Below, piece by piece: positions 1 to 41,708 of a stretch of 46,166 nt of DNA. The DNA is from an uncultured Gammaproteobacteria bacterium (GTDB lineage Bacteria > Patescibacteriota > Patescibacteriia > UBA11705 > JABHMO01), in contig CAZMEQ010000007.1 in NCBI GenBank assembly GCA_964565345.1, forward strand, positions 1 through 46,166, read 5' to 3'. The position numbers were made by a program, and so were the translations under genes. Every line of letters begins with the position of its first letter. Within the stretch, counting starts at the first letter, position 1. The notes beneath the pieces are model-generated. The model made no database searches, was not told where the DNA came from, and worked only from the letters and a program-made list of their open reading frames with translations.

Positions 1-620
1 GTCGTCCCATCCGCAGCAATGAACTGCTGCATAGCAAGTAGCTTGCGAAGACGCTTGACGAAGGCCTGACCACCAAAGGCGTCGGTGGCCAAGGCGGCCG
101 CAAATTCCTCCCCTCCCGGACGGCCAACCAGGTCAGAGGGACGCGATACCAAGTTCAGGAGCTCACCCAGCTTCCGCAGGACCGCGTCACCGACGTCATG
201 GCCGTAGGTGTCATTGACGTGCTTGAAATGGTCGATGTCGATTGACACTAAGGTCAAACAGCGTGCTGGGTCTTCATGCGGGTGTCCATTCTCACCGCGA
301 CGCTTAGTTGCATCGCCCTCATCGGCAAGGCTTCTATCCGCCGCTGTGCCAGGAAAGCGATAGCGGTGAGCCACCGCAAAGGCTCGACGGAACTCCTCAA
401 ACCACATTCGGCGCGACAGGACGTTAGTCAGCACATCACGATGCCAGGACTCGAGCTCCTCCTGGAGACCTTGGACCTTCTTCTTGAGAAGATCATTGAC
501 TCGGCTGAGTTGCCAGATCTTCACCGAAAGACCCACGATGAGACTCAAGATAAGGATCAAAAAGCCCCAGGTCGTTACACTCCCAAAGGTTTCTCGAACA
601 GAAGCCCAAAGTGCGATCAT
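1..620 (-). CDS. Membrane-anchored GGDEF diguanylate cyclase, 3' end truncated by the window edge; not in the ORF track
   Basis: Manual translation from ATG at 620: MIALWASVRETFGSVTTWGFLILILSLIVGLSVKIW...DVLTNVLSRR...SIDIDHFKHVNDTYGHDVGDAVL...RPSDLVGRPGGEEF. It has the canonical DxDxFKxxNDxxGHxxGD motif, an RxxD I-site and a GGEEF A-site. A GGGGGA RBS lies upstream. Confidence 0.9.
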   Translation of the reverse strand, partial: MIALWASVRETFGSVTTWGFLILILSLIVGLSVKIWQLSRVNDLLKKKVQGLQEELESWHRDVLTNVLSRRMWFEEFRRAFAVAHRYRFPGTAADRSLADEGDATKRRGENGHPHEDPARCLTLVSIDIDHFKHVNDTYGHDVGDAVLRKLGELLNLVSRPSDLVGRPGGEEFAAALATDAFGGQAFVKRLRKLLAMQQFIAADGT

Positions 621-3999: not shown

Positions 4000-5013
4000 C
4001 TACTTAGAGCGTTTTTTAGTCTTTCCGCGTAAATGTTCAACTATCCTGCGTAATTTAGACTTCCCTCCCTTTTCTTCCAGCTCTTCGAATAAAACTGCCC
4101 AGGCACCGAGCTGAAATACTGCGTACCAACTACCCACTGAAACTAATAATATGGCAAATAGGATTGCGGCTATTAATACTATTACAACCATGCCAATCTT
4201 GGCCCCTGCGAGAAGGAATAAAAAATATAATAAAACTAATGGTGCCAACATTAGGAAAGATGCGATTGTAAATAGGGCAGCGACGATAAAGTTTATAACG
4301 AAAAGAAGCAGTCCCATTTCCAAGTTCAAAACAACATTTCTTTTAAACAAACCCCAAGCACGAGCTAAAGCTTCTAGCGCTGTTTTCTTTCTTAAGACTG
4401 CATAAGCAACGCCGTAAATGGTTAAGAAATAAATAATTATTCCAAGAACAATAAAAACAACAAATGAAATAATATATATTGCCTGTTGCCACAGAACACT
4501 CTCTACTCTTATTAATGAGACAAAGTAGCTTAACAAGACTAAAAAGCCCAACAAAATCACCTTAGTTATAACGTTAAGTTCTAACACAGGCCAAAACCTA
4601 TCGATCCCGACTTTGAGACATTTTTTAGGTTCCGCCTTTTTATTTTGATCAAATTCTATAAATCCCCTAATTAAAGCACCCTGACAAATAACACCAAAGC
4701 TAATGAGTAATGCTAAAATGATCAAAACAACAAGTAAAGTAAAAATACTCAATCCAAAAGCACTGGCATCAGCTTGCCAAAGCATTTTCATTTTACCCCA
4801 AGTGAGCATACTAAAAACGCCTGATTGGGCGTACTCACGTAAAGTATAAAAAACAGAGCGCCCTTCGGCCATATTATTAAAACTGCGTACCAAGGCTTCA
4901 TAAACACCGCCATTGCCAATGAAAGCTGCGAAAAAACCTAAAAGCCACAACCACTTGTTTTTTAAACTAATTTGCCAGGCTCTTTTTAAAATTGGACGAT
5001 AATAAGGAATCAT
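4000..5013 (-). CDS. Multi-pass membrane protein of unknown function
   Basis: 337-aa ORF with about 6-7 hydrophobic segments and a basic C-tail. Confidence 0.75.
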   Translation of the reverse strand: MIPYYRPILKRAWQISLKNKWLWLLGFFAAFIGNGGVYEALVRSFNNMAEGRSVFYTLREYAQSGVFSMLTWGKMKMLWQADASAFGLSIFTLLVVLIILALLISFGVICQGALIRGFIEFDQNKKAEPKKCLKVGIDRFWPVLELNVITKVILLGFLVLLSYFVSLIRVESVLWQQAIYIISFVVFIVLGIIIYFLTIYGVAYAVLRKKTALEALARAWGLFKRNVVLNLEMGLLLFVINFIVAALFTIASFLMLAPLVLLYFLFLLAGAKIGMVVIVLIAAILFAILLVSVGSWYAVFQLGAWAVLFEELEEKGGKSKLRRIVEHLRGKTKKRSK

Positions 5014-5174
5014 ATTTTTTGATAAGCAAAAACCAAAAAATTTCTTTTGATTTTTGAATTTTATTTTGCTTTGATTCCATTATACCATTATTTTGCTTAT
5101 TAAAGAAAATATTGTGGACAAAAAATTCCACCAGCGCATAATGCTTAGGTGGAATTTTGTACTATTTTTAACGT

Positions 5175-6992
5175 TTACGCTTTCATTAATTTTTCAAAAT
5201 CATCCTTCTCAATTGTTTCTTTTTCTAGCAACACAGCGACCAATTTATCAATCTTTTGCTTATTCTTATTTATTAAGTCAGTCGCAGTATTCACTGCTCG
5301 GTCTATGAACAAATCAATCTCGGCATCAATTTCTTCGGCCACCTTCTCACTATAGTTTCGCTGTTCACGTAAGTCCCGTCCCAGAAAAACTAATTCTTCC
5401 TTTTCTCCAAAAATACGTGGCACTAATTTTTCGCTCATACCGAACTGAGTAATTAAACGACGAGCTAAGTTGGTTGCTTCCTTCAAATCATTGGACGCAC
5501 CAGTGGTAACTTCGCCAAAATATATTTTTTCAGCTACGTGTCCAGCCAATAAAACAGCAAGATCATCAACAAATTCTGACTTTTTATGTAAGTGCTTGTC
5601 TTCTGCAGGCAGCTTTAAAGTATAGCCGGCAGCATGTCCACGCGAGATAATGGAAACTTTATGGACTGGGTCAGAATTTGGCAAAAGCGACGCTACTACT
5701 GCATGTCCAGCTTCATGAACCGCTGTAATTTTCTTTTCTTTATCAGACAACATGTGTGATTTACGTTCTGGTCCCAATAAAACTTTCTCTACACTTTCTA
5801 AAAGTTCATCTTGAGTAATTTTGCGCTTATCACGTCGAGCCGTTAAAATGGCCGCTTCATTAAATAAGTTAGCTAAATCGGCACCCGAAAAACCTGGTGT
5901 ACGCTCCGCAACGCTGCGTATATTAACTTCTGTGGCCAATGGTTTATTCTTAGCGTGCACCTTTAGAATTTCTTCTCTATCATTAATATCTGGCAATTCT
6001 AATACAACCTGTCTATCAAAACGACCAGGCCGGAGCAACGCAGGATCCAAAACATCTGGTCTATTGGTAGCTGCAACAACTATAACATTAGTATTTGGAT
6101 CAAATCCATCCATCTCAACCAAAATCTGATTCAAGGTTTGTTCTCTCTCATCATGTGATCCACCCAAACCAGCGCCACGTTGGCGACCAACAGCGTCAAT
6201 TTCATCAATAAATACTATACATGGAGAATTCTTTTTGGCACGTTTAAACAAATCACGTACACGAGAAGCACCAACACCAACAAACATCTCCACAAATTCT
6301 GAACCAGAAATAGAGAAGAATGGCACATCAGCTTCTCCAGCAACAGCTTTAGCCAATAAAGTCTTACCAGTTCCCGGTGAACCCATTAATAAAACACCTT
6401 TGGGAATTCTTGCCCCTAAGGTAGTGAATTTTTTAGGATTTTTTAGGAACTCAACAACTTCTTGCAGTTCTTCTTTTGCTTCTTTGACTCCGGCAACATC
6501 CTTAAAGGTAACGCGCTGTTTGCCTTTTTGATTCACTTGTCGCGCCTGGCTTTGTCCAAAGCTCAAAGCGCGGGTATTGGCGCCCTGAACCTGTCGCATC
6601 ATATACCAAACGAATCCAACTATTAATATAAGCGGAATTAGGAATGGTAAAAGCGCTGACATCCAAAAGCCAAAACCAGACTCTTCTTTAACTTCGATGT
6701 TAACATTCTTTAATTCTTCTGTTTTTACCCCCAAATTGGTGAGTAGGGTTGATAATGACTCAGAAGTTTCTTTGTAAATTTCTTGTTTGGCATCATCTTG
6801 TAAAGTCACTTCCAAAACATTTCCACGAATATCTATTTGCTTAACTTTTCCCTGTTGCAACTGTTCAACCAGACGATTGATACCAACCACTTCCTTTTTA
6901 TCGCTTGAAACATTGTAAAGACTAAAGACACTCGCAATAAAAAGCAGCACTAGAACAAAAACAATAACGTTTTTTAATAGCTGATTTTTCAT
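5175..6992 (-). CDS. ftsH: ATP-dependent zinc metalloprotease FtsH
   Basis: Two N-terminal TM helices, GSPGTGKT Walker A, FIDEID Walker [29 protein letters not shown] zinc site. Confidence 0.98.
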
Positions 6993-28508: not shown

Positions 28509-28727
28509 ATGTATACGTTAGAAGGTACAGTCGACCGTTTTGAGGAGGGCATAGCCATAATCAAACTTGAGACAGGCGCTAGTTTACTATGGCCAAAAGA
28601 AAAATTACCCCCGCAAACAAACGAAGGCATGCTTGTTAAAATATCAATTAATACCGACTTAGATAAAACACAGGGACATGAAGATTTAGCTAAAAATTTA
28701 TTAAATGAAATATTAAGAAATGAATAA
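28509..28727 (+). CDS. DUF3006-like small protein
   Basis: VDRFE..IA.I...P...LP....EG pattern, 72 aa. Confidence 0.65.
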   Translation: MYTLEGTVDRFEEGIAIIKLETGASLLWPKEKLPPQTNEGMLVKISINTDLDKTQGHEDLAKNLLNEILRNE

Positions 28728-30675
28728 TATGTCCGAAATGCCCACGGAAGTCGTTAAGGCTTCAAAATTCTGGCGCATCTTGTTTACAAGTATCATTGCC
28801 GTTGTTACACTCACCTTCCTAGTTGCAGGGGTGATTTTTGTTTTGATGTATAATCACAAAAACACAATTCACGCTGGCGTAAAAATCGAAAGCGTAAGCC
28901 TCGGTGGCCTTACCAAAACACAGGCCAAAGATATTCTTTCTGGACAGGTAAAATTAGCCTTTGGTAATGGATACCAATTCAAAAGCAATGCAACAGAAAG
29001 AACAATTAACGATACCGAAAGAAAAATTTTTGATTTAAATTATGACAATAATATTGAACAGGCTTTCAACTTGGGACGCAATGGATCTCTTTTACAAAAC
29101 AGCTGGAACATCCTAAGTGCTGCAGTGTTAGGTAAGACTATAAAAGCTGATTATTATTTAGACAAGGATCTCCTAAAAAATAAGCTCCAAGAAGAATTTA
29201 AAGCTTTTGAAAAACCAAGCCAAGATGCCGATTTAGAAATTAATATTTTAAACAGTGAAGCGAAAAAATTCGAAATTATTTTGAAGCCTTCTACCACCGG
29301 AGGACTAACTTACGATTACAACTCCGCTATAAATGAATTAGAAAAAAATTTGCTCTCCTTTAATAATACGCCCGTAGTCCTAAATGAAAAAAATGACACT
29401 CCACATATTGATACAGTAGCAGCCGAAAAGCTAAAGCCAGAACTGGAAAAATTGATATCGCAAACACAGGAAATAAAACTTATTCACAAAGACATCGTAG
29501 AAACAATTAATTGGGTGGATCTTACTTCCTGGTTTCATATCGGTTTAAACGACCAAGAAGAACCGTCAATTATTCTAGATGAAACAATTGTGAAAGGACA
29601 GCTTATAGCCCTAGCCCAACGAATAAACAAAAATCCGGTCAATGCAAAACTACAAATGAAAGACAGCAAGGTAACTGAATTCCAAGCCAGCCAAACAGGA
29701 TTAGAACTTGATATTGATGCCAGTTACGCTGCGATAAAAACAGCCCTTTTTCAAGACGCTACAAATACGATTAACGTTGTTGTAAAAGAAGCGCAACCAG
29801 AAGTCGCCTTAAAAGATATTAATGGCCTTGGTATTAAAGAAATAATCGGCAGTGGTTCGTCCGACTTTTCGGGCAGCCCCAATAATAGACGGGTGAATAT
29901 TGGAGTTGGAGCAGCTTCGGTGCACGGAGTACTGATTGCGCCTAATGAGGAGTTTTCTTTGGTAAAAGTTTTAGGAGACGTTGATGCAAAAAATGGTTAT
30001 TTACCCGAACTAGTAATTAAAGAAAATAAAACCATACCAGAATATGGAGGTGGATTATGCCAAATCGCGACTACAGTATTTCGGGCTGCGCTTGATGCCG
30101 GCCTTAAAATTACTGAACGTGCGAATCACTCCTACCGAGTTGTTTATTATGAGCCCGCTGGGACTGACGCAACTATTTATATTCCAAAACCAGATGTTCG
30201 CTTTATTAATGACACACAAAATTACATTTTGTTTCAATCAACCTTAAAAGGGAATACTTTAACTTTTGATGTTTGGGGTGCATCAGATGGACGCCAAATA
30301 ACTTTCGAGGGGCAAAATAAAACAGATAACATAAAAGATTTACAACCAAAAATATTTAATATCACAGTACCAGGCCCAGCCAAAGAAATTGAGACCACTG
30401 AATTAAAACCAGGTGAACGTAAACGCACAGAAACAGCGCATAACGGAGCCGATACTTCATTTTCCAGAACCGTTACCTTTGCTGATGGCAAAACAGAAAC
30501 TGTTACTTGGAAAAGTCATTACGTCCCTTGGCAAGCGGTATACTTAATCGGAGTGGATCCAGCAAAAAAAGAAGCTGAAGCTAAGGCAGCCGAAGAAGCA
30601 GCTAATCCACCAATAGCACCAGATCCTAATGCTCCACCAGTAATGCCAGAATTGCCACCAGCTTTACCAGAATAA
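28720..30675 (+). CDS. VanW-family protein with N-terminal TM, putative peptidoglycan-binding repeats and Pro-rich tail
   Basis: FSLVKVLG, YGGGLCQIATTVFRAAL, ER.NHSY and G.DATIY motifs of the VanW domain. Confidence 0.85.
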   Translation: MNNMSEMPTEVVKASKFWRILFTSIIAVVTLTFLVAGVIFVLMYNHKNTIHAGVKIESVSLGGLTKTQAKDILSGQVKLAFGNGYQFKSNATERTINDTERKIFDLNYDNNIEQAFNLGRNGSLLQNSWNILSAAVLGKTIKADYYLDKDLLKNKLQEEFKAFEKPSQDADLEINILNSEAKKFEIILKPSTTGGLTYDYNSAINELEKNLLSFNNTPVVLNEKNDTPHIDTVAAEKLKPELEKLISQTQEIKLIHKDIVETINWVDLTSWFHIGLNDQEEPSIILDETIVKGQLIALAQRINKNPVNAKLQMKDSKVTEFQASQTGLELDIDASYAAIKTALFQDATNTINVVVKEAQPEVALKDINGLGIKEIIGSGSSDFSGSPNNRRVNIGVGAASVHGVLIAPNEEFSLVKVLGDVDAKNGYLPELVIKENKTIPEYGGGLCQIATTVFRAALDAGLKITERANHSYRVVYYEPAGTDATIYIPKPDVRFINDTQNYILFQSTLKGNTLTFDVWGASDGRQITFEGQNKTDNIKDLQPKIFNITVPGPAKEIETTELKPGERKRTETAHNGADTSFSRTVTFADGKTETVTWKSHYVPWQAVYLIGVDPAKKEAEAKAAEEAANPPIAPDPNAPPVMPELPPALPE

Positions 30676-30680
30676 AACAA

Positions 30681-30716
30681 AACCGTAGGTGCCAATAATT
30701 ATTGGCACCTACGGTT
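30681..30716. repeat. GTAG-type REP-like palindrome acting as terminator
   Basis: Perfect palindrome AACCGTAGGTGCCAATA-AT-TATTGGCACCTACGGTT. Confidence 0.75.
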
Positions 30717-30721
30717 GCAAA

Positions 30722-30855
30722 TAAAAAAACCTCCTTTAATGGACAGACAAGAAATTTTTATTTAGGCGAAATCGAGCCGAGGCCTGATTTTACCTAAAAT
30801 AAAAATCCCATGCTTGTCGTGTCTGCCCGAAAAAGGAGGCTTTTAATTTATAGAA
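30722..30855 (-). ncRNA. Candidate ~135-nt rod-like small RNA
   Basis: Downstream of a consensus promoter with no ORF. Stems CCTCCTTT/AAAGGAGG, GGGCAGACA/TGTCTGTCC and TTTAGGTAAAATC/GATTTCGCCTAAA; ends in T7. Confidence 0.55.
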
Positions 30856-30861
30856 CTTTGT

Positions 30862-30890
30862 AGTATATCAGTCTTTTAATTATTTGTCAA
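30862..30890 (-). promoter_or_regulatory. Near-consensus sigma70 promoter driving the candidate sRNA
   Basis: TTGACA (30890-30885), 17 nt, TGa TATACT (30867-30862). Confidence 0.7.
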
Positions 30891-31077: not shown

Positions 31078-31650
31078 CTAGGAGATAATTTTATCGACAA
31101 TCTTGTACGCTTTAGCTTCGCTTGCTGTCATATAATAATCACGGTCTGTGTCCTTTTCAACTTTCTTTAAGGGCTGACCAGTGTGCTTAGCTAAAATCTG
31201 ATTTAAGTTTTGCTTTACTTTAACAATTTCTTCGGCTTGAATCTGTATATCACTCGCCTGCCCCTGAGCCCCACCCATAACCTGATGAATCATGACTTTA
31301 GAGTTTGGCAAAGCAAAACGTTTGCCAGCAGCACCAGCGCCTAAAAGTAAAGCGCCCATACTAGCAGCCATACCTACACAAACAGTCTGAACATCAGGCT
31401 TAATGTATTGCATAGTATCGTAAATGGCTAAACCTGCGGTCACCGATCCGCCTGGTGAATTTATATAGAGAATAATATCTTTCTTTGGATCCTGACTTTC
31501 TAGAAACAACAATTGCGCTATAACGATATTAGCAACTTGATCATCAATAGCCGTGCCCAAAAAAATTATTCTTTCTTTTAACAAACGAGAATAAATATCA
31601 TAAGCACGTTCGCCCCCATGAGTTTTTTCAATAACTGTTGGAATAAGCAT
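31078..31650 (-). CDS. clpP: ATP-dependent Clp protease proteolytic subunit
   Basis: [28 protein letters not shown] catalytic Ser, MIHQ, ERD-like DTDRDYYM. Confidence 0.98.
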
Positions 31651-31812
31651 ATACTAATTTTTATTTATTAATTATGAATCTTGTTTCATGAACTATGAAC
31701 AAAGATATTATAGCACTTTGATTCTATTGTTTAAATCAAGAAGACTGTCGAGAGTTCACAACGAGATTTTTGTCTAAATTTAGCCAAAACAGAATAAATC
31801 CGTTTATCGGCA

Positions 31813-31841
31813 TTGACATTTTTAAAAAAATATGCTATTAT
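31813..31841 (+). promoter_or_regulatory. Consensus sigma70 promoter driving the large candidate ncRNA
   Basis: TTGACA, 17 nt, TGc TATTAT, about 580 nt upstream of the next ATG (ftsK). Confidence 0.75.
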
Positions 31842-31847
31842 ATAGGG

Positions 31848-32275
31848 TTATTTAAAATCAATTATCTCTAAAGTGATGTAGAGGAGAGAGACAGCTGATT
31901 CCTTGCTCCATGCTTGCTTGGCATCGGCACTATCTATTATCAACAACACTAAGTACACGGGAATAAACAAAATTATATTTTGCCCATCACCCTTAGTGAC
32001 ACTTCTCCATCACCTTAAAGATAATTGCTAGAAAACTGATGAGGCGCGGCTAGGTATTTATATATATTTAATAAAGCGCCTTCAGCTAAGCCTCGTCAAT
32101 TTTCTGCCAATTATCCTGTACCTTCCAAATGAGTAGACAAGAGAGATCTCTCTCCTCACTCCCGGGTTTCTTTGTTCTTTCAAATTAATAAGCCCGAGAG
32201 TAACTTGTCTGCTCGTTTGGGGGGTTCACCCCCAAAGGAGAGCGGTAGCGTCCCGTGTGGATTCTACTGCTTTTT
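31848..32275 (+). ncRNA. Candidate ~430-nt multi-domain structured RNA
   Basis: Three long-stem domains (31860-32026, 32031-32104, 32125-32220), two small hairpins, a terminal U-run and two long-range perfect complements. G-U pairs favour the + strand. Confidence 0.6.
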
Positions 32276-32422
32276 CATATTACGAATATCCTCTGGTTAC
32301 CAATAATCATGTCCAAGTCAACAATTAATAACACCCAGCCATTCTTAAATCGTAATAAAACCAGTTTTCTTTTCCTCAAAAGTATGCTAAAATAAGCTTA
32401 CTTAAGTCTAAATAAAAACCAA

Positions 32423-34843
32423 ATGGCTAGAAAAAAAGCACGTCGCTATGAGGAAGTTACCTATTACCGCTTAAGCCCGGAAACCAAGCGCGGGATACTC
32501 ATTGTTTCGTTGTTTGCAATTGCCTTAATCTGCGTTTTAGGCTTTCTAAATTTAGCTGGCATTGCTGGCCTCTATGTTGATTTTGGACTTGGCGTTGCCT
32601 TTGGGTGGGGCCGTTTTTTATTTCCAATTGTTTTACTCGGCTTAGGCTATGTTTTAGCTCGTCCCAACTCATATGAAGTAAATTGGCCCAACTACCTTGG
32701 TATTGGATTATTTATTTTAAGTAGCCATGCATTACTACAACTCACAGCGCCAGAAATAACTTCAGTTAAAATGACTATCAGTGGTTTGGGTGGTGGCTTT
32801 ATAGGTTTTATCTTGACTCATCCACTAGTTGTATATTTAGGCTTTTGGGCATCGCTAATAATTTTAATTGCAATCCTTGTTACTTCGGTTCTACTTATGT
32901 TTAATACCAGCATCGAATCATTAGTTGAAAGATTAAATTTCATGAAATTTATTAGCCCTGTATTCAAACGTCGCGAAGTCAATGATTCTAATGACGAGGA
33001 TGACTCTGAAGACGTTGAAGAACCAAAGGAAGAAGAAAACGAGGAAAAAGAAGAAAAAGTGGAAGAAAACCCAGAAGAAGATGTTCAGGTTGAAGTTGTA
33101 AAAAATCCAGCCAAAGAGATCTTAACAATCAATTCTAAAGGTGCACCAGTACGCAGTGCTCCCAAAAAGAAAATCGATCTACCATTGGATTTATTGGATG
33201 GCAAAAAAAGTAAACCTACAAGCGGAGATATAAAAGTTGGTAGAGAAAAAATCCAAAAAACATTAGAAAATTTCCATATCAACGTAGAGATGGGAGAGGT
33301 TCAAGTCGGACCAACTGTGACTCAATACACTTTTGCTCCAGCTGATGGGGTTAAACTTTCTAGAATTACAGCCTTAAACAATGACCTAGCTCTTGCCTTA
33401 GCAGCCCACCCCGTAAGAATCGAAGCCCCTATTCCAGGGAAATCCTTAGTAGGGATTGAAGTACCAAACACCAAACCAGCCATAGTCCGTATGCGCGAAA
33501 CACTTGAATCTGATGCCTTTATGCACCGCAAATCAAATCTAGAAATTCCACTCGGCAAAGACGTCAGTGGTAAAGTTTGGACCGCTAATATCGCTAGCAT
33601 GCCACACTTATTGGTTGCTGGTGCCACGGGCTCTGGTAAATCTGTTTGTTTAAATTCAATAATTGTTAGTCTGTTATATCAAAACAACACTGATACTCTA
33701 CGCATGATTCTAGTTGACCCTAAACGTGTAGAATTCCCAGTGTATAATGGTATCCCTCACCTTTTAGTTCCCGTTATCACCGATGTTACTAAAACAGTAA
33801 ACGCCTTACGTTGGGCCATTGGTGAAATGGATAGACGTTTTGATGAACTGGCTAAATATAAGAAGCGTAATATTGAAAGTTACAACTACTCAGCGCGCGA
33901 AAAAATGCCTTATATCGTCATCGTTGTCGATGAATTAGCCGATCTTATGATTGCTGCTGCAGCAGAGGTGGAGGCCTGTATAGTTCGTTTGGTTCAAATG
34001 GCGCGCGCTGTGGGCATACACTTAATTGTGGCCACACAACGCCCATCTGTAGATGTTATTACTGGTTTAATCAAAGCTAATATTCCTTGCCGCATTGCTT
34101 TTAGCGTTACCTCTCTTATGGACTCTAGAACCATTTTAGATTCTTCGGGTGCGGAAAAATTAGTGGGCAAAGGCGACATGCTTTATATGTCTAACAGCAC
34201 ACCCAAACCAAGACGTATGCAGGGCGCTTATTTATCGGATGAGGAAATAAAGAATGTAGTTGATTATCTTAAAAAAGAAGCAGACGAACCAGAATACTTA
34301 GAAGAAATAACTGATAAGCCAAAAAACAGCAACGGTTCTAGTTTTGATTATAATTCTGGGAGTGGTGATGATGATCTTTTTGATGAGGCCAAACAAACTG
34401 TAATTATGGCTGGAAAAGCATCAACTTCATACCTCCAAAGACGCCTACGCATTGGCTATGCACGAGCCGCACGTCTTATTGATCTACTTGAAGAAGCTGG
34501 AGTTATTGGGCCGGGCGATGGAGCTAAACCACGAGAGATTTTAGTTGATAAAAGATCAGCTCTGATGGGGCCGCCGCTACAAACGACGAAATTAGACAAC
34601 AAAGAGATTGAAGATTATTCAGAAAATCCTTTTTCTCTTGAAGAAGAAAAAGAGCCAGACGTGATTGATGATAACAATATAGATAATCAGCCTATATTAG
34701 ATAATGATCCCGAGGAATCAGAAGAATTATTGCCTGAGGAAATCGATGAAAACGAGGAAGAAATTGCTGAAACAGAAATAGAAGATGAAATACCCTCCAC
34801 TAAAGCCAAACAGAAAAATGATGAACCTGATGAAATATACTAA
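32423..34843 (+). CDS. ftsK: DNA translocase FtsK/SpoIIIE
   Basis: N-terminal 4-TM region, AGATGSGKS Walker A, VVDELAD, ATQRPS, gamma domain STSYLQRRLRIGYARAAR. Confidence 0.97.
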   Translation: MARKKARRYEEVTYYRLSPETKRGILIVSLFAIALICVLGFLNLAGIAGLYVDFGLGVAFGWGRFLFPIVLLGLGYVLARPNSYEVNWPNYLGIGLFILSSHALLQLTAPEITSVKMTISGLGGGFIGFILTHPLVVYLGFWASLIILIAILVTSVLLMFNTSIESLVERLNFMKFISPVFKRREVNDSNDEDDSEDVEEPKEEENEEKEEKVEENPEEDVQVEVVKNPAKEILTINSKGAPVRSAPKKKIDLPLDLLDGKKSKPTSGDIKVGREKIQKTLENFHINVEMGEVQVGPTVTQYTFAPADGVKLSRITALNNDLALALAAHPVRIEAPIPGKSLVGIEVPNTKPAIVRMRETLESDAFMHRKSNLEIPLGKDVSGKVWTANIASMPHLLVAGATGSGKSVCLNSIIVSLLYQNNTDTLRMILVDPKRVEFPVYNGIPHLLVPVITDVTKTVNALRWAIGEMDRRFDELAKYKKRNIESYNYSAREKMPYIVIVVDELADLMIAAAAEVEACIVRLVQMARAVGIHLIVATQRPSVDVITGLIKANIPCRIAFSVTSLMDSRTILDSSGAEKLVGKGDMLYMSNSTPKPRRMQGAYLSDEEIKNVVDYLKKEADEPEYLEEITDKPKNSNGSSFDYNSGSGDDDLFDEAKQTVIMAGKASTSYLQRRLRIGYARAARLIDLLEEAGVIGPGDGAKPREILVDKRSALMGPPLQTTKLDNKEIEDYSENPFSLEEEKEPDVIDDNNIDNQPILDNDPEESEELLPEEIDENEEEIAETEIEDEIPSTKAKQKNDEPDEIY

Positions 34844-36657: not shown

Positions 36658-39600
36658 CTACTTAACAAGTGCATAGGCAATTGCTCGTAAAACACCCCAT
36701 GCATATGATGAACCAGGAACAGTTTTATAAACCTTCGTAAATATTGCCAAAGCCTGTTTTTCTTTTTCTAAGTCACGTACAACTGGTCGTAAACGATACG
36801 CTAGTATGTCGACAAAATTGCTTTCATTGGGTGTAACTAAGGTTGTTACTTTATTGGCGATGTTTTTAAACTCATTTAATGCTTCATCCTTTTGTGGGCT
36901 TAAAGTGTCTGGTTTTTGCCCTAAGTAAATTTTAGATAAATTGCTCCAATCATTTTCTGTTGAGGGAAGCCTCTTAAAGAGCTCATTATAATCATTTAAA
37001 AGACCCGCTCTGTCACGCAAGGTTAGCCTCGAGGTTACAGCATTGCCATAAGCCAAAAAATGAATGCTCTCCCAATCCTTCCCTGCAGGTAATCGTTTTA
37101 CTATTTTTACAAATTCATTTAAGGCTGTTTTTTCTAAATTGAGGTTTTGTACTGGTCTAAAAGGCATGTAAATTACCTCTTCCACTGTTTTATCTTTAAC
37201 TTCTTCCTTTATGAATTCTTTTGTTTCTTTGTCTGGCTGTTCTGTTTTTTGAGAAGGCAGGTCTACTGGCTCCTCTGATACTTGTTGCTCTTCCTGGTCA
37301 CCAAATAACCAATTCCACCAAGATGAACCTCTTGTGACAACCCTAGCTGGTTCAACGCCCGCCATGAAGCCAGTTAAATGGCGTGTCAAAATATAAACCA
37401 AATCATCTCCTCCTAATTGCTCTGCCACTACGTAACAATGTCCACCTTCATCTAGTTCAACGTCGGCATAATTATCTGGATTGAAAACTTCCCCAACTTG
37501 ATCTTCCGTGCACTCTGGTATCTCCTCCGTGGTATTGTCATAATAGCGAGTAGCAATAACTCTATTTGTCAAAGAAACAACCCCTGGATACTCAAATGAA
37601 ATCAAAACAGGCTTGCTTAACATTATGTTTGAGTTTAAACCACTGTTGAATTCAACTAAAATAGCTGAATTTATTAATCCAGAAATTTCAGCGCTTAAAT
37701 CTAAATCAACACTTTCAAAAAGGCCGCTCCAATCTTCACTCGTTGTAAAGGTAGTCCCACTAGCCGCTTTAAATGTTACTGGTTGTTCACCAACTAAAAT
37801 TTCCACATTAATAGGATCTACCACAGTACCTGCATAAATACCTCCACCCAAAGATTCCATTGAAATAGCCGGAATAATTGGATCTTCACCACCTTCTCCA
37901 AAATCAAGACTTATGGTACCAGAACCGACCTCACTAATATCAATCACACTTTCGTAAACCGAATAGACATCAGGATCGCCGTCTGGTGTTCCACCAGCAA
38001 ACCAAAAGGCTCCAACGGTTAAATTGTCTTGCCCCTCGACTAAAGGAACATACATTGTTGTACTCCCAGGCTCCGGCAAAATAACGATTCCACCTGGTTC
38101 ACCATCCATACTTTCACCATACCAGCCCGCAACATATATAGGCTGTTCTTCCCAATTAGTCCAAAGAACTTCGATATCCAACTCATAGTAATCTCCTTCT
38201 GGGATTTCGTTCCAAAGGGTATAGCCGCCTTCTTCTTCATCTTCCCCTAAATTAATTGTAATTGCGGAACTACCTACCGCACTGATATCAATTAAACTCT
38301 CATAGGTTTCTGAAACATCCGGATCGCCGTCGGAGTCGCCATCAGCAAACCAAGCCGCCTGAACCGTTAAACTGTCTTGGCCCTCAACTAACGGAATATA
38401 CAAGATCGTACTACCAGGCTGTGACAAGACAGCATAACCATCCGGAGAGCCTTCAGCTGTCGCGCCATACCAGCCCGCAACATAGATTGGCTGTTCTACC
38501 CAATCAGCCCAGAGGACTTCAACATCCAACTCATAATAATCCCCCGCTGGAACCTCGTCCCACAAAACAGCATCTTCTTCCTCCTGTTCATTAAAATCAA
38601 ATGTAACTGGTTTTAAATTCTCATCCAAAAGAAATTCCATTTCCTTGGCATCATAAAACTCATTTTGCAAAGAAGAAATTACAATTAGCCTTTGATCAAC
38701 AATACCTTCCGTTGTTTTCATAGCAACTGGTAAATAGGGAGAGTCTTCATCAAGATAACCATCTTCTAAACTCGTACGTGTGTTGTTGCCAAATTCGTTG
38801 CTGATTGTAATTTCGATACCGACGATTGGAATTTCGCCATTCATTACTCTAATAGTGGGAGAGTAGGCTAACAATAACGGTGCTGTGCCCTCCACTTGCG
38901 CCGCCTCAAACGTACTCCATGGAACCACAATCATATTACCATCGGAATCAGCCGTACTATAGACATCATAAATAGAAGAATTTGAAACATTCCCAATAAA
39001 GGCATTATTTGACGAGCTCCCAGACACCCAAAAACCATAGCTAGAAGAATCTATTTCGACATTTTCAAATGCATTACTAATTGAATCAGCAACTTTAATT
39101 CCGGCATAATAGGCCTGTTCTCCTGAGATATAAAATGGATCAGAAGATCCTTCAGCTATACTAACTCCAGCCGCCAAAAATAAACCTTCATTATAAGTAT
39201 AAGAACTTCCGGAACTTGAAATAGCGTCCTCAATAAAAACAGCAACTGCCACCTCACTCATCTCAAACGCCGCTTCTATGTCACCAGCTGAAGAAAACTT
39301 AGAATCTTTTACAAATAGAGCGAATAACATTTCTCCGTCATCTATAAGTGCAAAGTCCAAATTTTCTTCTGGATAATTGCTCAGAACGTCAGTAACATCC
39401 GTGTTGTTTTCACTAATTTCGCAGATATACTTAGGACAATTATCTGGATCAAGAATCCCCAGAGTAGTGTATTGAACTGCCTCATAAGTAAAAACAGAAT
39501 ACCCAGCTGAATATACAAAATTCGTATCTGTGGCTCCCTGAATTAACATGTTTTCGAAATAATTATTATCTGAATTATTTAGATAAATACTGTTACTATT

Positions 39601-41580
39601 TAAAGGGGCGTCGATAATTGTTGTTTCTCCAGCCCCTGTAATAGTCATGTTATTTTTATCTTCCAAGACAATGCCACCATTATAAGTCCCGTCAGCGATG
39701 TAAACCGTATCTCCACTTCTTAAGGATTCTATAATATCTGTATTATTAGCATGTACAGTTTCATAATCAACTTCAGCATCATCGTCGATATAAATAGTCG
39801 TAATACGTTCAGCAGAATATGCCCCAATATCATCAGTCCCATTAACATCTAATAATAAGCTCATTGGCGCTAACTCTAAAGTATCACCCATAAATATTGG
39901 ATCAACATTATACAAATTATTTGCACCATTAGTTACTGAAACCTCATAAGTATAATCGCCCCAATCTTCAACTGATGACGAATCCGAGATTATGTCATTA
40001 TAATCATAACTAAAAGTCACAGAAGTATTATCACAATTTTTTTGGTATACAACAGGGGTTGTTTTCCCACTAACAATAATAATGTTGTTATTAACCAAAC
40101 CAGTTACTGTTTCCGTATTACTACTGTGTGATTCTGGTGTGGGGCATTGAACGTCCGCAAAATGTATTGCAACCGAACTACCAGAATCAACACCACCAAA
40201 ATCAATTGTATTATTTTCAACTGTAAACGAAGCTGAATCTTCCACAATATCAGAACGCCCCACTAAATCGATTACCCTTATATACACTTCAGTTTCGGCC
40301 TCCGGATATGAAATATAATTACCACTAATTACTGCGTGGCCAGCCGCTGCTATGGCTCCACCAAACGCATCATCAGTTATTTCTGTATGATATGTGAAGT
40401 AATTATTTTGGATGTAATTAACACTGGTTGAAGTGCCTATTAAATCGGTGATGAGCGATGAGTTAAACACATCTGTCCCATAATAGACATCAACGCTGTT
40501 TCCAATAAATTCAAAATCTTCAATAAAGATAGGTCCACCAGCTATTAATTTACCACCACAATCACCCCCACCCCACGCACAAAACTCAATTCCTTCATTT
40601 AATATGAATTCATTATCGGAGACAACTGCCCCCGGAGCACTTATTTTTAAGCCAATATCTTCAAAAGCACAATTTTGTATTGTTGTACCAGGTCCATTAA
40701 TCTGGAAATAATTATCCGCATTAACGAATTCTACCAATGACGGGGTACTGATAGAGACATCATCCAAATAAGCAAACATGTTTGGGCCAGGAATCATAAA
40801 TATTAAGGTAATAGTTCCACTTTCTGGAACAGGGATATCTGCTATAGCCCATTGTTCATACCCACCCTCCATTGGAGGCACTCCAACGGACCACATACGT
40901 CCCGGCCCAGGAGTAAAAATTGTGTCTTCCCCAAGTGCGGTCCAACCGCCTTCAAGTCCAAAATTATAATATTCAGTTTCGTTGCCCCAACTGTCATTTG
41001 ACAAATAGGTAAAAATATCACTGCCCATGCCCCCTGTGCCCTTAACATAAAAAGAGATATCCATTAATTCTCTAGGGATTAAACCTGTTATTGTTTGTCT
41101 GACATGATAACCTAGACTATCGCCATCATTTAGAAGATAAAACGCATTACTGCCACTGTTAGCATTTTCAAACACTTGAGCAAAAGTTCCAGTTCCTGGT
41201 GACCCAGGCATACCCGAGGCTCCAGTAGCCCAAGTATCTCCGAGTTCAAGTTCAAAGCCACCGTTGTTTACAACTTCCTCCGGGTCTCCGGCTGACCATC
41301 GGCCAAAGCTAAAGTTATTACTTTGGCAATCGACAGTTAAGTCCGCGGTCTCAGGAAAGACAACTGGATATGATTCTGCCTGTGGATTATATGTGTCTGA
41401 CAAAACTATGGTGTCTCCTAATTGTGCTATAGCTAAGGCATCAGCCAAAGTACTTTCACCGCCCTCTCCAACAGTAATCGTGCCAGGAACATCAGCCAAA
41501 GCCTGATAAACCACCAACGCGGTACAAATAAAACAGACCAATAAGCTCAAAACCAGGATATTAATTTTGTTTTTTTGCAT
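36658..41580 (-). CDS. Very large acidic secreted/surface protein (about 1640 aa)
   Basis: Signal peptide ending ALA-D, CBM-like segment (NNGGFE...W), beta-helix-like segments (VYIADGTY...ITGAG), tandem 116-aa repeats, helical C-terminal repeats. ATG 41580 is preferred over TTG 41586. Confidence 0.85.
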   Translation of the reverse strand: MQKNKINILVLSLLVCFICTALVVYQALADVPGTITVGEGGESTLADALAIAQLGDTIVLSDTYNPQAESYPVVFPETADLTVDCQSNNFSFGRWSAGDPEEVVNNGGFELELGDTWATGASGMPGSPGTGTFAQVFENANSGSNAFYLLNDGDSLGYHVRQTITGLIPRELMDISFYVKGTGGMGSDIFTYLSNDSWGNETEYYNFGLEGGWTALGEDTIFTPGPGRMWSVGVPPMEGGYEQWAIADIPVPESGTITLIFMIPGPNMFAYLDDVSISTPSLVEFVNADNYFQINGPGTTIQNCAFEDIGLKISAPGAVVSDNEFILNEGIEFCAWGGGDCGGKLIAGGPIFIEDFEFIGNSVDVYYGTDVFNSSLITDLIGTSTSVNYIQNNYFTYHTEITDDAFGGAIAAAGHAVISGNYISYPEAETEVYIRVIDLVGRSDIVEDSASFTVENNTIDFGGVDSGSSVAIHFADVQCPTPESHSSNTETVTGLVNNNIIIVSGKTTPVVYQKNCDNTSVTFSYDYNDIISDSSSVEDWGDYTYEVSVTNGANNLYNVDPIFMGDTLELAPMSLLLDVNGTDDIGAYSAERITTIYIDDDAEVDYETVHANNTDIIESLRSGDTVYIADGTYNGGIVLEDKNNMTITGAGETTIIDAPLNSNSIYLNNSDNNYFENMLIQGATDTNFVYSAGYSVFTYEAVQYTTLGILDPDNCPKYICEISENNTDVTDVLSNYPEENLDFALIDDGEMLFALFVKDSKFSSAGDIEAAFEMSEVAVAVFIEDAISSSGSSYTYNEGLFLAAGVSIAEGSSDPFYISGEQAYYAGIKVADSISNAFENVEIDSSSYGFWVSGSSSNNAFIGNVSNSSIYDVYSTADSDGNMIVVPWSTFEAAQVEGTAPLLLAYSPTIRVMNGEIPIVGIEITISNEFGNNTRTSLEDGYLDEDSPYLPVAMKTTEGIVDQRLIVISSLQNEFYDAKEMEFLLDENLKPVTFDFNEQEEEDAVLWDEVPAGDYYELDVEVLWADWVEQPIYVAGWYGATAEGSPDGYAVLSQPGSTILYIPLVEGQDSLTVQAAWFADGDSDGDPDVSETYESLIDISAVGSSAITINLGEDEEEGGYTLWNEIPEGDYYELDIEVLWTNWEEQPIYVAGWYGESMDGEPGGIVILPEPGSTTMYVPLVEGQDNLTVGAFWFAGGTPDGDPDVYSVYESVIDISEVGSGTISLDFGEGGEDPIIPAISMESLGGGIYAGTVVDPINVEILVGEQPVTFKAASGTTFTTSEDWSGLFESVDLDLSAEISGLINSAILVEFNSGLNSNIMLSKPVLISFEYPGVVSLTNRVIATRYYDNTTEEIPECTEDQVGEVFNPDNYADVELDEGGHCYVVAEQLGGDDLVYILTRHLTGFMAGVEPARVVTRGSSWWNWLFGDQEEQQVSEEPVDLPSQKTEQPDKETKEFIKEEVKDKTVEEVIYMPFRPVQNLNLEKTALNEFVKIVKRLPAGKDWESIHFLAYGNAVTSRLTLRDRAGLLNDYNELFKRLPSTENDWSNLSKIYLGQKPDTLSPQKDEALNEFKNIANKVTTLVTPNESNFVDILAYRLRPVVRDLEKEKQALAIFTKVYKTVPGSSYAWGVLRAIAYALVK
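37884..38565 (-). repeat. Two tandem 116-aa (348-bp) domain repeats inside the surface protein
   Basis: LWDEVPAGDYYELDVEVLWADWVEQPIYVAGWYG... versus LWNEIPEGDYYELDIEVLWTNWEEQPIYVAGWYG...; about 70 of 108 positions identical by hand alignment. Confidence 0.9.
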
Positions 41581-41708
41581 ATACAAAAAAATTTTATGGA
41601 TAATGCTGCATTACATTTATATTATACCACATTTTTAACGCCCCCCCCAGTTTGACTTGACTAGTTCTGTGGATATTGTTATTTATAAATACCTAAAAAC
41701 AGAAGCGG

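Follow-up and report, generated by a model that had tools for sequence, protein, structure and literature searches.

Sequence evidence for a new family of structured non-coding RNAs of about 430 nt encoded upstream of ftsK in a small clade of Patescibacteria

What is encoded between clpP and ftsK, where a near-consensus promoter opens a region with no recognisable gene? Genomes of CPR/Patescibacteria are very small, and 430 nt of non-coding DNA behind a consensus promoter is a cost that they can seldom bear; to our knowledge, almost nothing is known of the non-coding RNAs of these bacteria. Large RNAs with extensive structure are rare in bacteria; the best characterised of them are ribozymes, ribonucleoprotein cores or self-assembling particles, and each new class is therefore a lead to new biochemistry. 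In the window (the whole stretch of 46,166 nt that was analysed) the initial annotation had placed an undescribed structured plus-strand RNA of ~430 nt in this interval, which is referred to here as RNA1. Sequence comparison supports RNA1 as a genuine new family of structured non-coding RNA with its own promoter and terminator.

The layout of the transcription unit was read from alignments of the whole intergenic regions and of the upstream regions, and the features identified are listed in Table 1. The promoter named in the initial annotation matches 11 of the 12 consensus positions and carries the TG extension; TTGACA-N17-TGCTATAAT is kept directly 5′ of RNA1 in all homologues with 5′ flank available. 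The 5′ end of RNA1 was inferred at ~7 nt past the -10 element and the 3′ end was taken as the U-run. The hairpin and U-run likewise predicted before ftsK form part of the MFE structure, show compensatory changes and are kept across all homologues: every RNA1 copy closes with a GC-rich hairpin and then a T-run. A simple terminator scan did not flag this hairpin because its stem is interrupted. The region had also been described as ORF-poor, and the ORFs within 31848-32275 do not exceed 46 aa. No conserved ORF was found among the homologues, the longest ORFs differing in strand and position, and most indels have lengths not divisible by three (6-18 such indels per pairwise comparison); with no conserved ORF and with frame-breaking indels, a coding function was ruled out. 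The palindrome upstream of the RNA1 promoter is conserved in a 14-locus alignment of the upstream regions, including the two loci without clpP (L082 and L277), and may be a possible operator or activator site of this promoter.

Table 1. Features of the RNA1 locus and of the adjacent RNA2 candidate. Positions are those of the window, except for the five helices given in columns of alignment A1.
Feature	Position	Strand	Description
clpP	31078..31650	-	Pfam CLP_protease, E 1.6e-86; divergent upstream neighbour, outside RNA1
Palindrome CTAAATTTAG	31774..31783	+	~30 nt upstream of the RNA1 -35; part of inverted repeat I6
RNA1 promoter	31813..31841	+	-35 TTGACA, 17-nt spacer, extended -10 TG-n-TATTAT
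RNA1 (ncRNA, ~428 nt)	31848..32275	+	Fold, 16-sequence alignment A1, covariation, no Rfam match
Domain 1	31859..32027	+	Closing helix P1, 31859-31878 with 32008-32027
Domain 1 interior			Variable hairpin P1a ~31894-31928; single-stranded block AUCUAUUAUCAACAA 31932-31946; hairpin P1b 31947-31998
R tract GAGGAGAGAGA	31881..31891	+	Invariant purine run atop P1; perfect 11-nt complement of Y2
Y1 tract	32002..32008	+	CUUCUCC in the window; family consensus UCCUCU; extends P1
Domain 2	32029..32106	+	Long interrupted hairpin UAGAAAA.UGAUGAGGC ... GCCUCGUCA.UUUUCUG
Domain 3	32120..32225	+	Closing helix P3, 32120-32141 with 32204-32225
Domain 3 interior			Y2; inner hairpin P3b ~32159-32200; conserved UUGUUCUUU segment 32172-32180
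Y2 tract UCUCUCUCCUC	32147..32157	+	Invariant pyrimidine run; candidate long-range or intermolecular partner of R
P4	32219..32233	+	Small variable hairpin between domain 3 and terminator; GGGGGG UUCA CCCCC in the window
RNA1 intrinsic terminator	32241..32275	+	Stem AGCGGUAG.GUCC / GGAU.CUACUGCU, loop CGUGU, U5
ftsK extended -10 (TGCTAAAAT)	32385..32393	+	29 nt upstream of the ftsK start codon
ftsK	32423..34843	+	Pfam FtsK_4TM, FtsK_alpha, FtsK_SpoIIIE, FtsK_gamma; downstream neighbour, outside RNA1
Inverted repeat I2	31859-31882 with 32004-32027		Domain 1 closing stem
Inverted repeat I1	32020-32045 with 32090-32115		Domain 2
Inverted repeat I3	32117-32141 with 32204-32228		Domain 3
Inverted repeat I7	31881-31891 with 32147-32157		GAGGAGAGAGA with TCTCTCTCCTC; 11/11 complementary
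Inverted repeat I12	31955-31962 with 32251-32258		ACACGGGA with TCCCGTGT; 8/8 complementary
Helix P1	Columns 35-52 with 206-223		10/16 pairs with double changes; 90% of cells paired
Helix P1b	Columns 135-141 with 187-193		6/7 pairs with double changes; 92% of cells paired
Domain 2 helix	Columns 240-274 with 289-324		13/28 pairs with double changes; 82% of cells paired
Helix P3	Columns 395-415 with 531-551		8/21 pairs with double changes; 91% of cells paired
Terminator helix	Columns 573-589 with 595-611		10/16 pairs with double changes; 82% of cells paired
RNA2 promoter	30890-30862	-	TTGACA-17-TATACT
RNA2 hairpin	~30855 to 30722	-	~130 nt, ends in U7

Homologues were searched for with a DNA pattern made from the conserved blocks of three sequences (the window, L081 and L082) and confirmed with nhmmer, chance pattern matches being discarded. 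Fifteen further distinct homologues were found in genome and metagenome contigs, giving 16 sequences with the window; RNA1 is conserved in these relatives, with covariation and at the same position. A search that started from ClpP was unhelpful because this protein is too conserved: none of 80 loci from all phyla contained RNA1. The FtsK-based search returned two carriers only, L081 and L082 (nhmmer E 4e-10 and 2e-16), both with RNA1 upstream of ftsK. In all 15 loci with a downstream flank ftsK follows RNA1 directly and in the same orientation; the contig of the 16th, L288, ends just past RNA1. The divergent upstream neighbour is clpP in most loci, the exceptions being L082, with a gene for a Bro-N domain protein, and L277, with a 75-aa Cys-rich ORF. 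There is one copy per locus and a single copy in the window. The surroundings of the RNA1 loci showed no sign of a phage, plasmid or tRNA island, and none of four pattern matches in viral contigs was homologous to RNA1.

The more distant relatives examined (Kerfeldbacteria L083, Peribacteria loci and the clpP loci L001 and L005) lack RNA1. Some of the records that carry it are labelled Parcubacteria group (e.g. GW2011_GWA2_40_23, LBYP01) or Patescibacteria group, with several TPA MAGs labelled Gammaproteobacteria. The latter label appears doubtful, because the FtsK sequences are closest to those of the window and of Patescibacteria records. The RNA1 family is thus far narrow, with ~16 distinct sequences, and confined to one small clade of Patescibacteria/CPR-type bacteria.

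The fold of the plus strand has an energy of -151.1 kcal/mol, compared with -97.7 ± 5.4 in dinucleotide shuffles (z -9.87, none of 100 shuffles being as good); the minus strand of the same region also folds better than its shuffles, with a z of -6.5. All the stems of domains 1-3 named in the initial annotation were recovered as inverted repeats I2, I1 and I3. Alignment A1 of the 16 sequences has a mean column identity of 51%, and RNAalifold found 30 of 58 pairs to be compensatory, recovering the domain 2 stem, the domain 3 closing stem, one inner stem of domain 1 and the terminator. Covariation was quantified by projecting the MFE structure of the window onto A1, the controls being the same pairs with partners slid by 1-3 columns, and 500 shuffles. 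The proportion of paired cells was 80.5%, a percentage inflated by taking the structure from one member, compared with 45-50% (about 47%) in the slid controls. Changes on both sides were seen in 70 of 141 pairs versus 35-46 in the slid controls, and none of the 500 shuffles matched the observed values for pairing and double changes. These double changes cluster in five helices, namely P1, P1b, domain 2, P3 and the terminator. In the supported helices G-U combinations outnumber A-C combinations by 136 to 31, and therefore the plus strand is the RNA strand, as had been proposed from the G-U pairs of the window. Overall, the sequence analysis shows the boundaries and strand of the RNA1 gene, its secondary structure and its conservation.

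Outside the covarying positions a number of elements are strongly conserved. Helix P3 contains an invariant GAGUAGACAA (32131-32140) paired to UUGUCUGCUC (32205-32214), the UUGUUCUUU block is kept in 15 of 16 sequences and the single-stranded AUCUAUUAUCAACAA block in domain 1 is also conserved. Hairpin P1a was formed in 9 of 9 homologues folded individually, and at the position of P4 every homologue has a self-complementary stretch, differing in sequence and length, as read from the alignment without scoring. Of the 14 sequences with domain 1, 13 share an identical purine tract GAGGAGAGAG; L277 has GAAGGAGAGAGA instead. L081 and L286 have another GAGGAGAGAG-like tract within domain 2, of which L298 and L238 have close variants, and L244 has three domain 1 modules, two of which form a 168-nt tandem repeat with 95% identity. 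Repeatable modules, each presenting a purine tract, are easier to reconcile with a binding or scaffold RNA than with a leader.

Two local resemblances were examined and rejected. A dif-like site at the AT-rich tip of domain 2 was ruled out, the tip being unconserved. The core of the hammerhead ribozyme consists of unpaired CUGAUGA ... GAAA at a three-way junction; in RNA1 the CUGAUGA at 32036-32042 forms Watson-Crick pairs with GCCUCGUCA as part of a covarying helix (columns 248-256 with 308-316), and no Rfam hammerhead match was found in RNA1. The CUGAUGAG sequence was accordingly ruled out as a hammerhead core and also as a C-box/K-turn, being a plain covarying helix.

The initial annotation had pointed to two perfect long-range complements linking the domains, and these fared differently. 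The complementarity of R with Y2 is perfect in the window and conserved in the family: Y2 is present in 16 of 16 sequences, and the two tracts are paired in 95% of cells. Both are invariant, hence there is zero covariation for or against the helix, and R also has a local alternative. Its 5′ half, AGAGGA, pairs with Y1 UCCUCU in 90% of cells (52-69% in slid controls), and UCU, at the base of P1a, is a possible partner for its 3′ AGA. As R has these local partners, R-Y2 would be a pseudoknot competing with part of the domain 1 core. The pairing is plausible from the sequences, and could represent docking, a switch or a contact between molecules. When all column pairs were scanned for further long-range helices, only R/Y2 stood out. 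Y2 was part of the search patterns and R was never required by any of them; a scan that did not require Y2 (pattern GAGTAGRCAA..TGTCTRCTCNT), aimed at removing this ascertainment bias, found no members with a variant Y2 and no new members at all. It returned palindromic repeats of Prevotella/Bacteroidales and the Patescibacteria locus L302, which were rejected as members of the family, both being unrelated, the Prevotella repeats by nhmmer. A role of R as a Shine-Dalgarno mimic or ribosome decoy was unsupported: among 30 ORFs, GGAGG occurs at Shine-Dalgarno distance only before the 11015-14359 gene.

The second complement, ACACGGGA with TCCCGTGT, holds in the window but is confined to its closest relatives. 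The ACACGGGA/UCCCGUGU pairing extends to 9-10 bp in the window, L242, L293, L280 and L300, and a C-to-U change in L300 retains a G-U pair. The other clades have only 4-9 bp of unrelated, G-U-rich pairings, and GGG pairs locally with CCC. A general tertiary contact was ruled out, the pairing being restricted to the subgroup of the window.

Comparison with known RNA classes was made with the 4227 models of Rfam 15 (including RNase P, tmRNA, 6S, SRP, OLE, GOLLD, ROOL, raiA, riboswitches, ribozymes and group I/II introns). At the gathering score cmscan gave no matches in the whole window or in the 15 homologous loci (118 kb), and at E<=10 on 31600-32480 there were four weak matches only, of 13-19 bits against thresholds of 43-97. 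Known families were thus without a match, and the earlier statement that RNA1 lacks tmRNA, RNase P, intron and riboswitch signatures was borne out by Rfam 15, ARAGORN and a scan for the RNase P CR-I motif. Searches of the CPR/Patescibacteria literature yielded no account of an RNA of this type. What is new is the family itself, for which no relative whatever was detected; the mode of action could match that of a known class.

We consider it fairly probable that RNA1 is a folded RNA made from its own gene and acting in trans, with the invariant tracts serving for docking or for binding a partner. In outline, a near-consensus sigma-70-type promoter would drive RNA1, and an intrinsic terminator would end it well before ftsK, itself under its own promoter. 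The folded transcript would comprise three domains supported by covariation, followed by a small variable hairpin and the terminator, and would act in trans as a scaffold, probably bound to protein or nucleic acid. Its functional surface would consist of the invariant elements, namely R, Y1, Y2, the GAGUAGACAA/UUGUCUGCUC helix and a UUCUUU loop. R may dock domain 1 onto domain 3 through Y2, or may toggle between Y1 (local) and Y2 (long-range). Action in trans, R-Y2 docking and partner binding are the inferred parts of this outline. The sponges CsrB/RsmZ and the 6S decoy offer a partial parallel: RNA1 is likewise stand-alone, with a strong promoter and terminator and an invariant purine motif in a repeatable module. 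It differs from them in having neither an array of GGA hairpins nor the 6S rod with a central bubble, in giving no Rfam match and in that most of its members have a single module.

The constancy of the ftsK linkage is a point against action in trans. Linkage and co-orientation, seen in every locus with a downstream flank, persist where clpP has been replaced (L082, L277), and would also fit a cis role. Given the narrow distribution of the family, conserved gene order alone could suffice to explain them, and RNA1 might have an accessory role. On the cis reading RNA1 would be a leader of ftsK, in which a conformation set by a ligand, a protein or temperature decides between termination and read-through; this is unlikely in our judgement, although several features fit it. 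In terminator riboswitches the regulated ORF comes directly after the terminator, in the same transcription unit and with no promoter of its own. RNA1 resembles them in being structured, upstream of and co-oriented with a gene, in ending at an intrinsic terminator and in having mutually exclusive pairings, since R can pair with Y1 or Y2; moreover, 83% of cells allow pairing between the 5′ arm of the terminator and the 3′ strand of P3. This candidate antiterminator, however, is barely above controls (slid versions gave 50-75%, and 36 of 500 shuffles reached 83%), and no antiterminator of RNA1 is backed by covariation.

The arrangement downstream of the terminator also differs from that of a riboswitch. 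In 14 of 15 loci the interval from the RNA1 terminator to ftsK contains an extended -10, TGCTAAAAT or TGATAAAAT, which lies 23-80 nt ahead of the ftsK start. The spacers from terminator to ftsK, 71-398 nt long, are otherwise unconserved. ftsK thus appears to have its own promoter 3′ of the terminator, and that of RNA1 is much nearer to consensus. Because of this second conserved extended -10 after the terminator, RNA1 is most likely an independent gene and not the leader of ftsK. The three domain 1 copies of L244 also speak against a leader, and we know of no riboswitch aptamer that reaches the size of RNA1 (~430 nt). The regulator of ftsK suggested in the initial annotation, which the constant linkage and the competing pairings would fit, is therefore the weaker reading, ftsK having an extended -10 of its own.

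The preferred trans-acting RNA could also work in a different manner, with R and Y2 pairing between molecules to give a dimer or a higher-order RNA-only particle, as recently found for OLE, ROOL and GOLLD, or with the two tracts forming the core of an unrecognised, clade-specific ribozyme or ribonucleoprotein machine; we would rate this as quite improbable. Like OLE, ROOL, GOLLD and raiA motif RNAs, RNA1 is several hundred nucleotides long and multidomain, with covarying helices and invariant loops or junctions, and its gene context reveals no function. In OLE, ROOL and GOLLD conserved loop-loop pairings proved to be intermolecular (PMC12286853), and R/Y2 is a candidate for the same interpretation. 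RNA1 differs from all four in matching no Rfam model, in lying always beside ftsK and in being limited so far to a single small clade, and it is shorter than a ROOL example of 659 nt (PMC12286853).

That RNA1 might be a highly divergent housekeeping RNA (RNase P, tmRNA, 6S or SRP) missed by the standard models seems to us very improbable. Its size and strong promoter are typical of stable RNAs, and the closest parallel is with RNase P RNA. This is a stand-alone, stable molecule of ~400 nt, in which helix P4 is a long-range pairing of two highly conserved strands, the 5′ one being CR-I, and in which P1 joins both ends and encloses the whole molecule. R and Y2 recall the strands of P4, and R opens with GAGGA, as does the CR-I motif GAGGAAAGUCC. 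R differs from that motif at 4 of 11 positions, however, and no match to it within 3 mismatches is present on the plus strand of 31848-32275. The 5′ and 3′ ends of RNA1 are unpaired, its P1 closing only domain 1 (31859-32027) after ~170 nt, and the purine strand is inside this locally closed domain. No covariance-model match of any credibility was obtained, at the gathering score in the 15 loci or among the weak ones at E<=10. In tmRNA the paired 5′ and 3′ ends form a tRNA-like domain and the molecule carries a tag reading frame; the 3′ end of RNA1 is a terminator hairpin and not an acceptor stem with CCA, and ARAGORN was negative for both tmRNA and tRNA across the window and the 15 homologous loci. 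Finally, a universal RNA would not be expected in one clade, and L001 and L005 are without RNA1 although they have clpP and the second RNA candidate described below.

We give hardly any credence to a DNA-level or selfish element (a palindromic repeat, MITE or recombination site), for although the inverted repeats are long, both strands fold better than shuffles and the E/H motif pattern also matches Prevotella palindromic repeats, these matches are unrelated by nhmmer, RNA1 is in a single copy at a fixed position and orientation, its promoter and terminator are conserved, and the compensatory changes and the excess of G-U over A-C favour one strand. Such probability as is left over from the four readings listed belongs to functions that we have not foreseen.

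RNA1 is small enough to be synthesised and probed, and its invariant purine and pyrimidine tracts translate directly into hypotheses for mutagenesis. Were self-assembly through R/Y2 true, RNA1 would be the first RNA of this kind from the ultra-small CPR bacteria.

A second conserved RNA candidate, RNA2, was observed on the minus strand downstream of clpP (Table 1). Comparison with Rfam gave nothing at the gathering score and weak sub-threshold matches only at E<=10. Its fold has an energy of -53.3 kcal/mol (z -8.7), and in eight homologous loci the core is nearly invariant and the base stem covaries. More weakly, RNA2 is also present in L005 and L001, the two clpP loci without RNA1. RNA2 suggests an unexplored RNA repertoire in this clade.

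The analysis of the minus strand on the far side of clpP revealed a second ncRNA candidate (Table), distinct from the large RNA, the ~430-nt structured transcript predicted between clpP and ftsK. Its promoter is followed by a hairpin of about 130 nt, the base of which also serves as a terminator ending in U7, and the predicted fold has a free energy of -53.3 kcal/mol (z -8.7). Comparison with Rfam gave no matches at the gathering score and only weak sub-threshold matches at E<=10. With E values from 1e-47 to 1e-58, the second RNA is conserved in eight homologous loci (L293, L280, L286, L238, L298, L081, L192 and L212). Weaker conservation is seen in L005 and L001, both of which are without the large RNA. 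Across homologous loci its core is nearly invariant and covariation is seen in the base stem.

Features located on both sides of clpP (window coordinates)
Feature	Position	Strand	Remarks
Perfect 16-bp hairpin, AACCGTAGGTGCCAAT AATT ATTGGCACCTACGGTT	30681-30716		directly after the VanW-like gene (28720-30675)
Second ncRNA candidate	30722-30890	minus	downstream of clpP
Promoter of second RNA, TTGACA-17-TATACT	30890-30862	minus	
Conserved elements 5' of the large RNA -35	31743-31784		palindrome and TGTC block
TGTC...ACA/ACAC block	~31745-31760		conserved across loci, including loci without clpP
Palindrome CTAAATTTAG	31774-31783		conserved across loci, including loci without clpP

The large RNA has in its domain 3 an invariant helix, GAGUAGACAAG / CUUGUCUGCUC (32131-32141 with 32204-32214), and the second RNA has a similar one, likewise invariant, as its lower helix, GGGCAGACA..CAAG / CUUGUCUGUCC (30727-30740 with 30814-30829, minus strand); the two have an 8-mer in common. 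This could be due to chance or could represent a joint protein-binding motif.

The palindrome and the TGTC block may together form a transcription-factor site serving both divergent promoters. Upstream of the large RNA, clpP is replaced by a gene for a Bro-N domain protein (1-630) in L082 and by a 75-aa Cys-rich ORF (101-328) in L277; in this lineage a local rearrangement took place and the large RNA stayed beside ftsK. A different variation was found in L244, where the homologue of the large RNA (4882-5657) reaches 776 nt because domain 1 occurs three times. Two of the copies form a 168-nt tandem repeat with 95% identity (5087-5390), and the third is divergent, with a separate GGGGAGAGAG tract.

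The pattern GAGTAGRCAA-N45-75-TGTCTRCTCNT matched dozens of Prevotella and Bacteroidales loci (L301-L374) on both strands simultaneously, which indicates a palindromic repeat element of those genomes. By nhmmer this repeat is unrelated to the large RNA.

Elsewhere in the window, neither the 1642-aa ORF (36658-41586) nor the 337-aa ORF (4000-5013), both on the minus strand, had Pfam matches at E<=1e-5. Bordered by A-runs and T-runs, the 16-bp hairpin after the VanW-like gene probably acts as a bidirectional terminator. Shine-Dalgarno sequences are nearly absent across the 30 ORF starts, most of which are preceded by A/T-rich sequence; GGAGG was found only upstream of the 11015-14359 gene, which from its size and position is probably rpoB.
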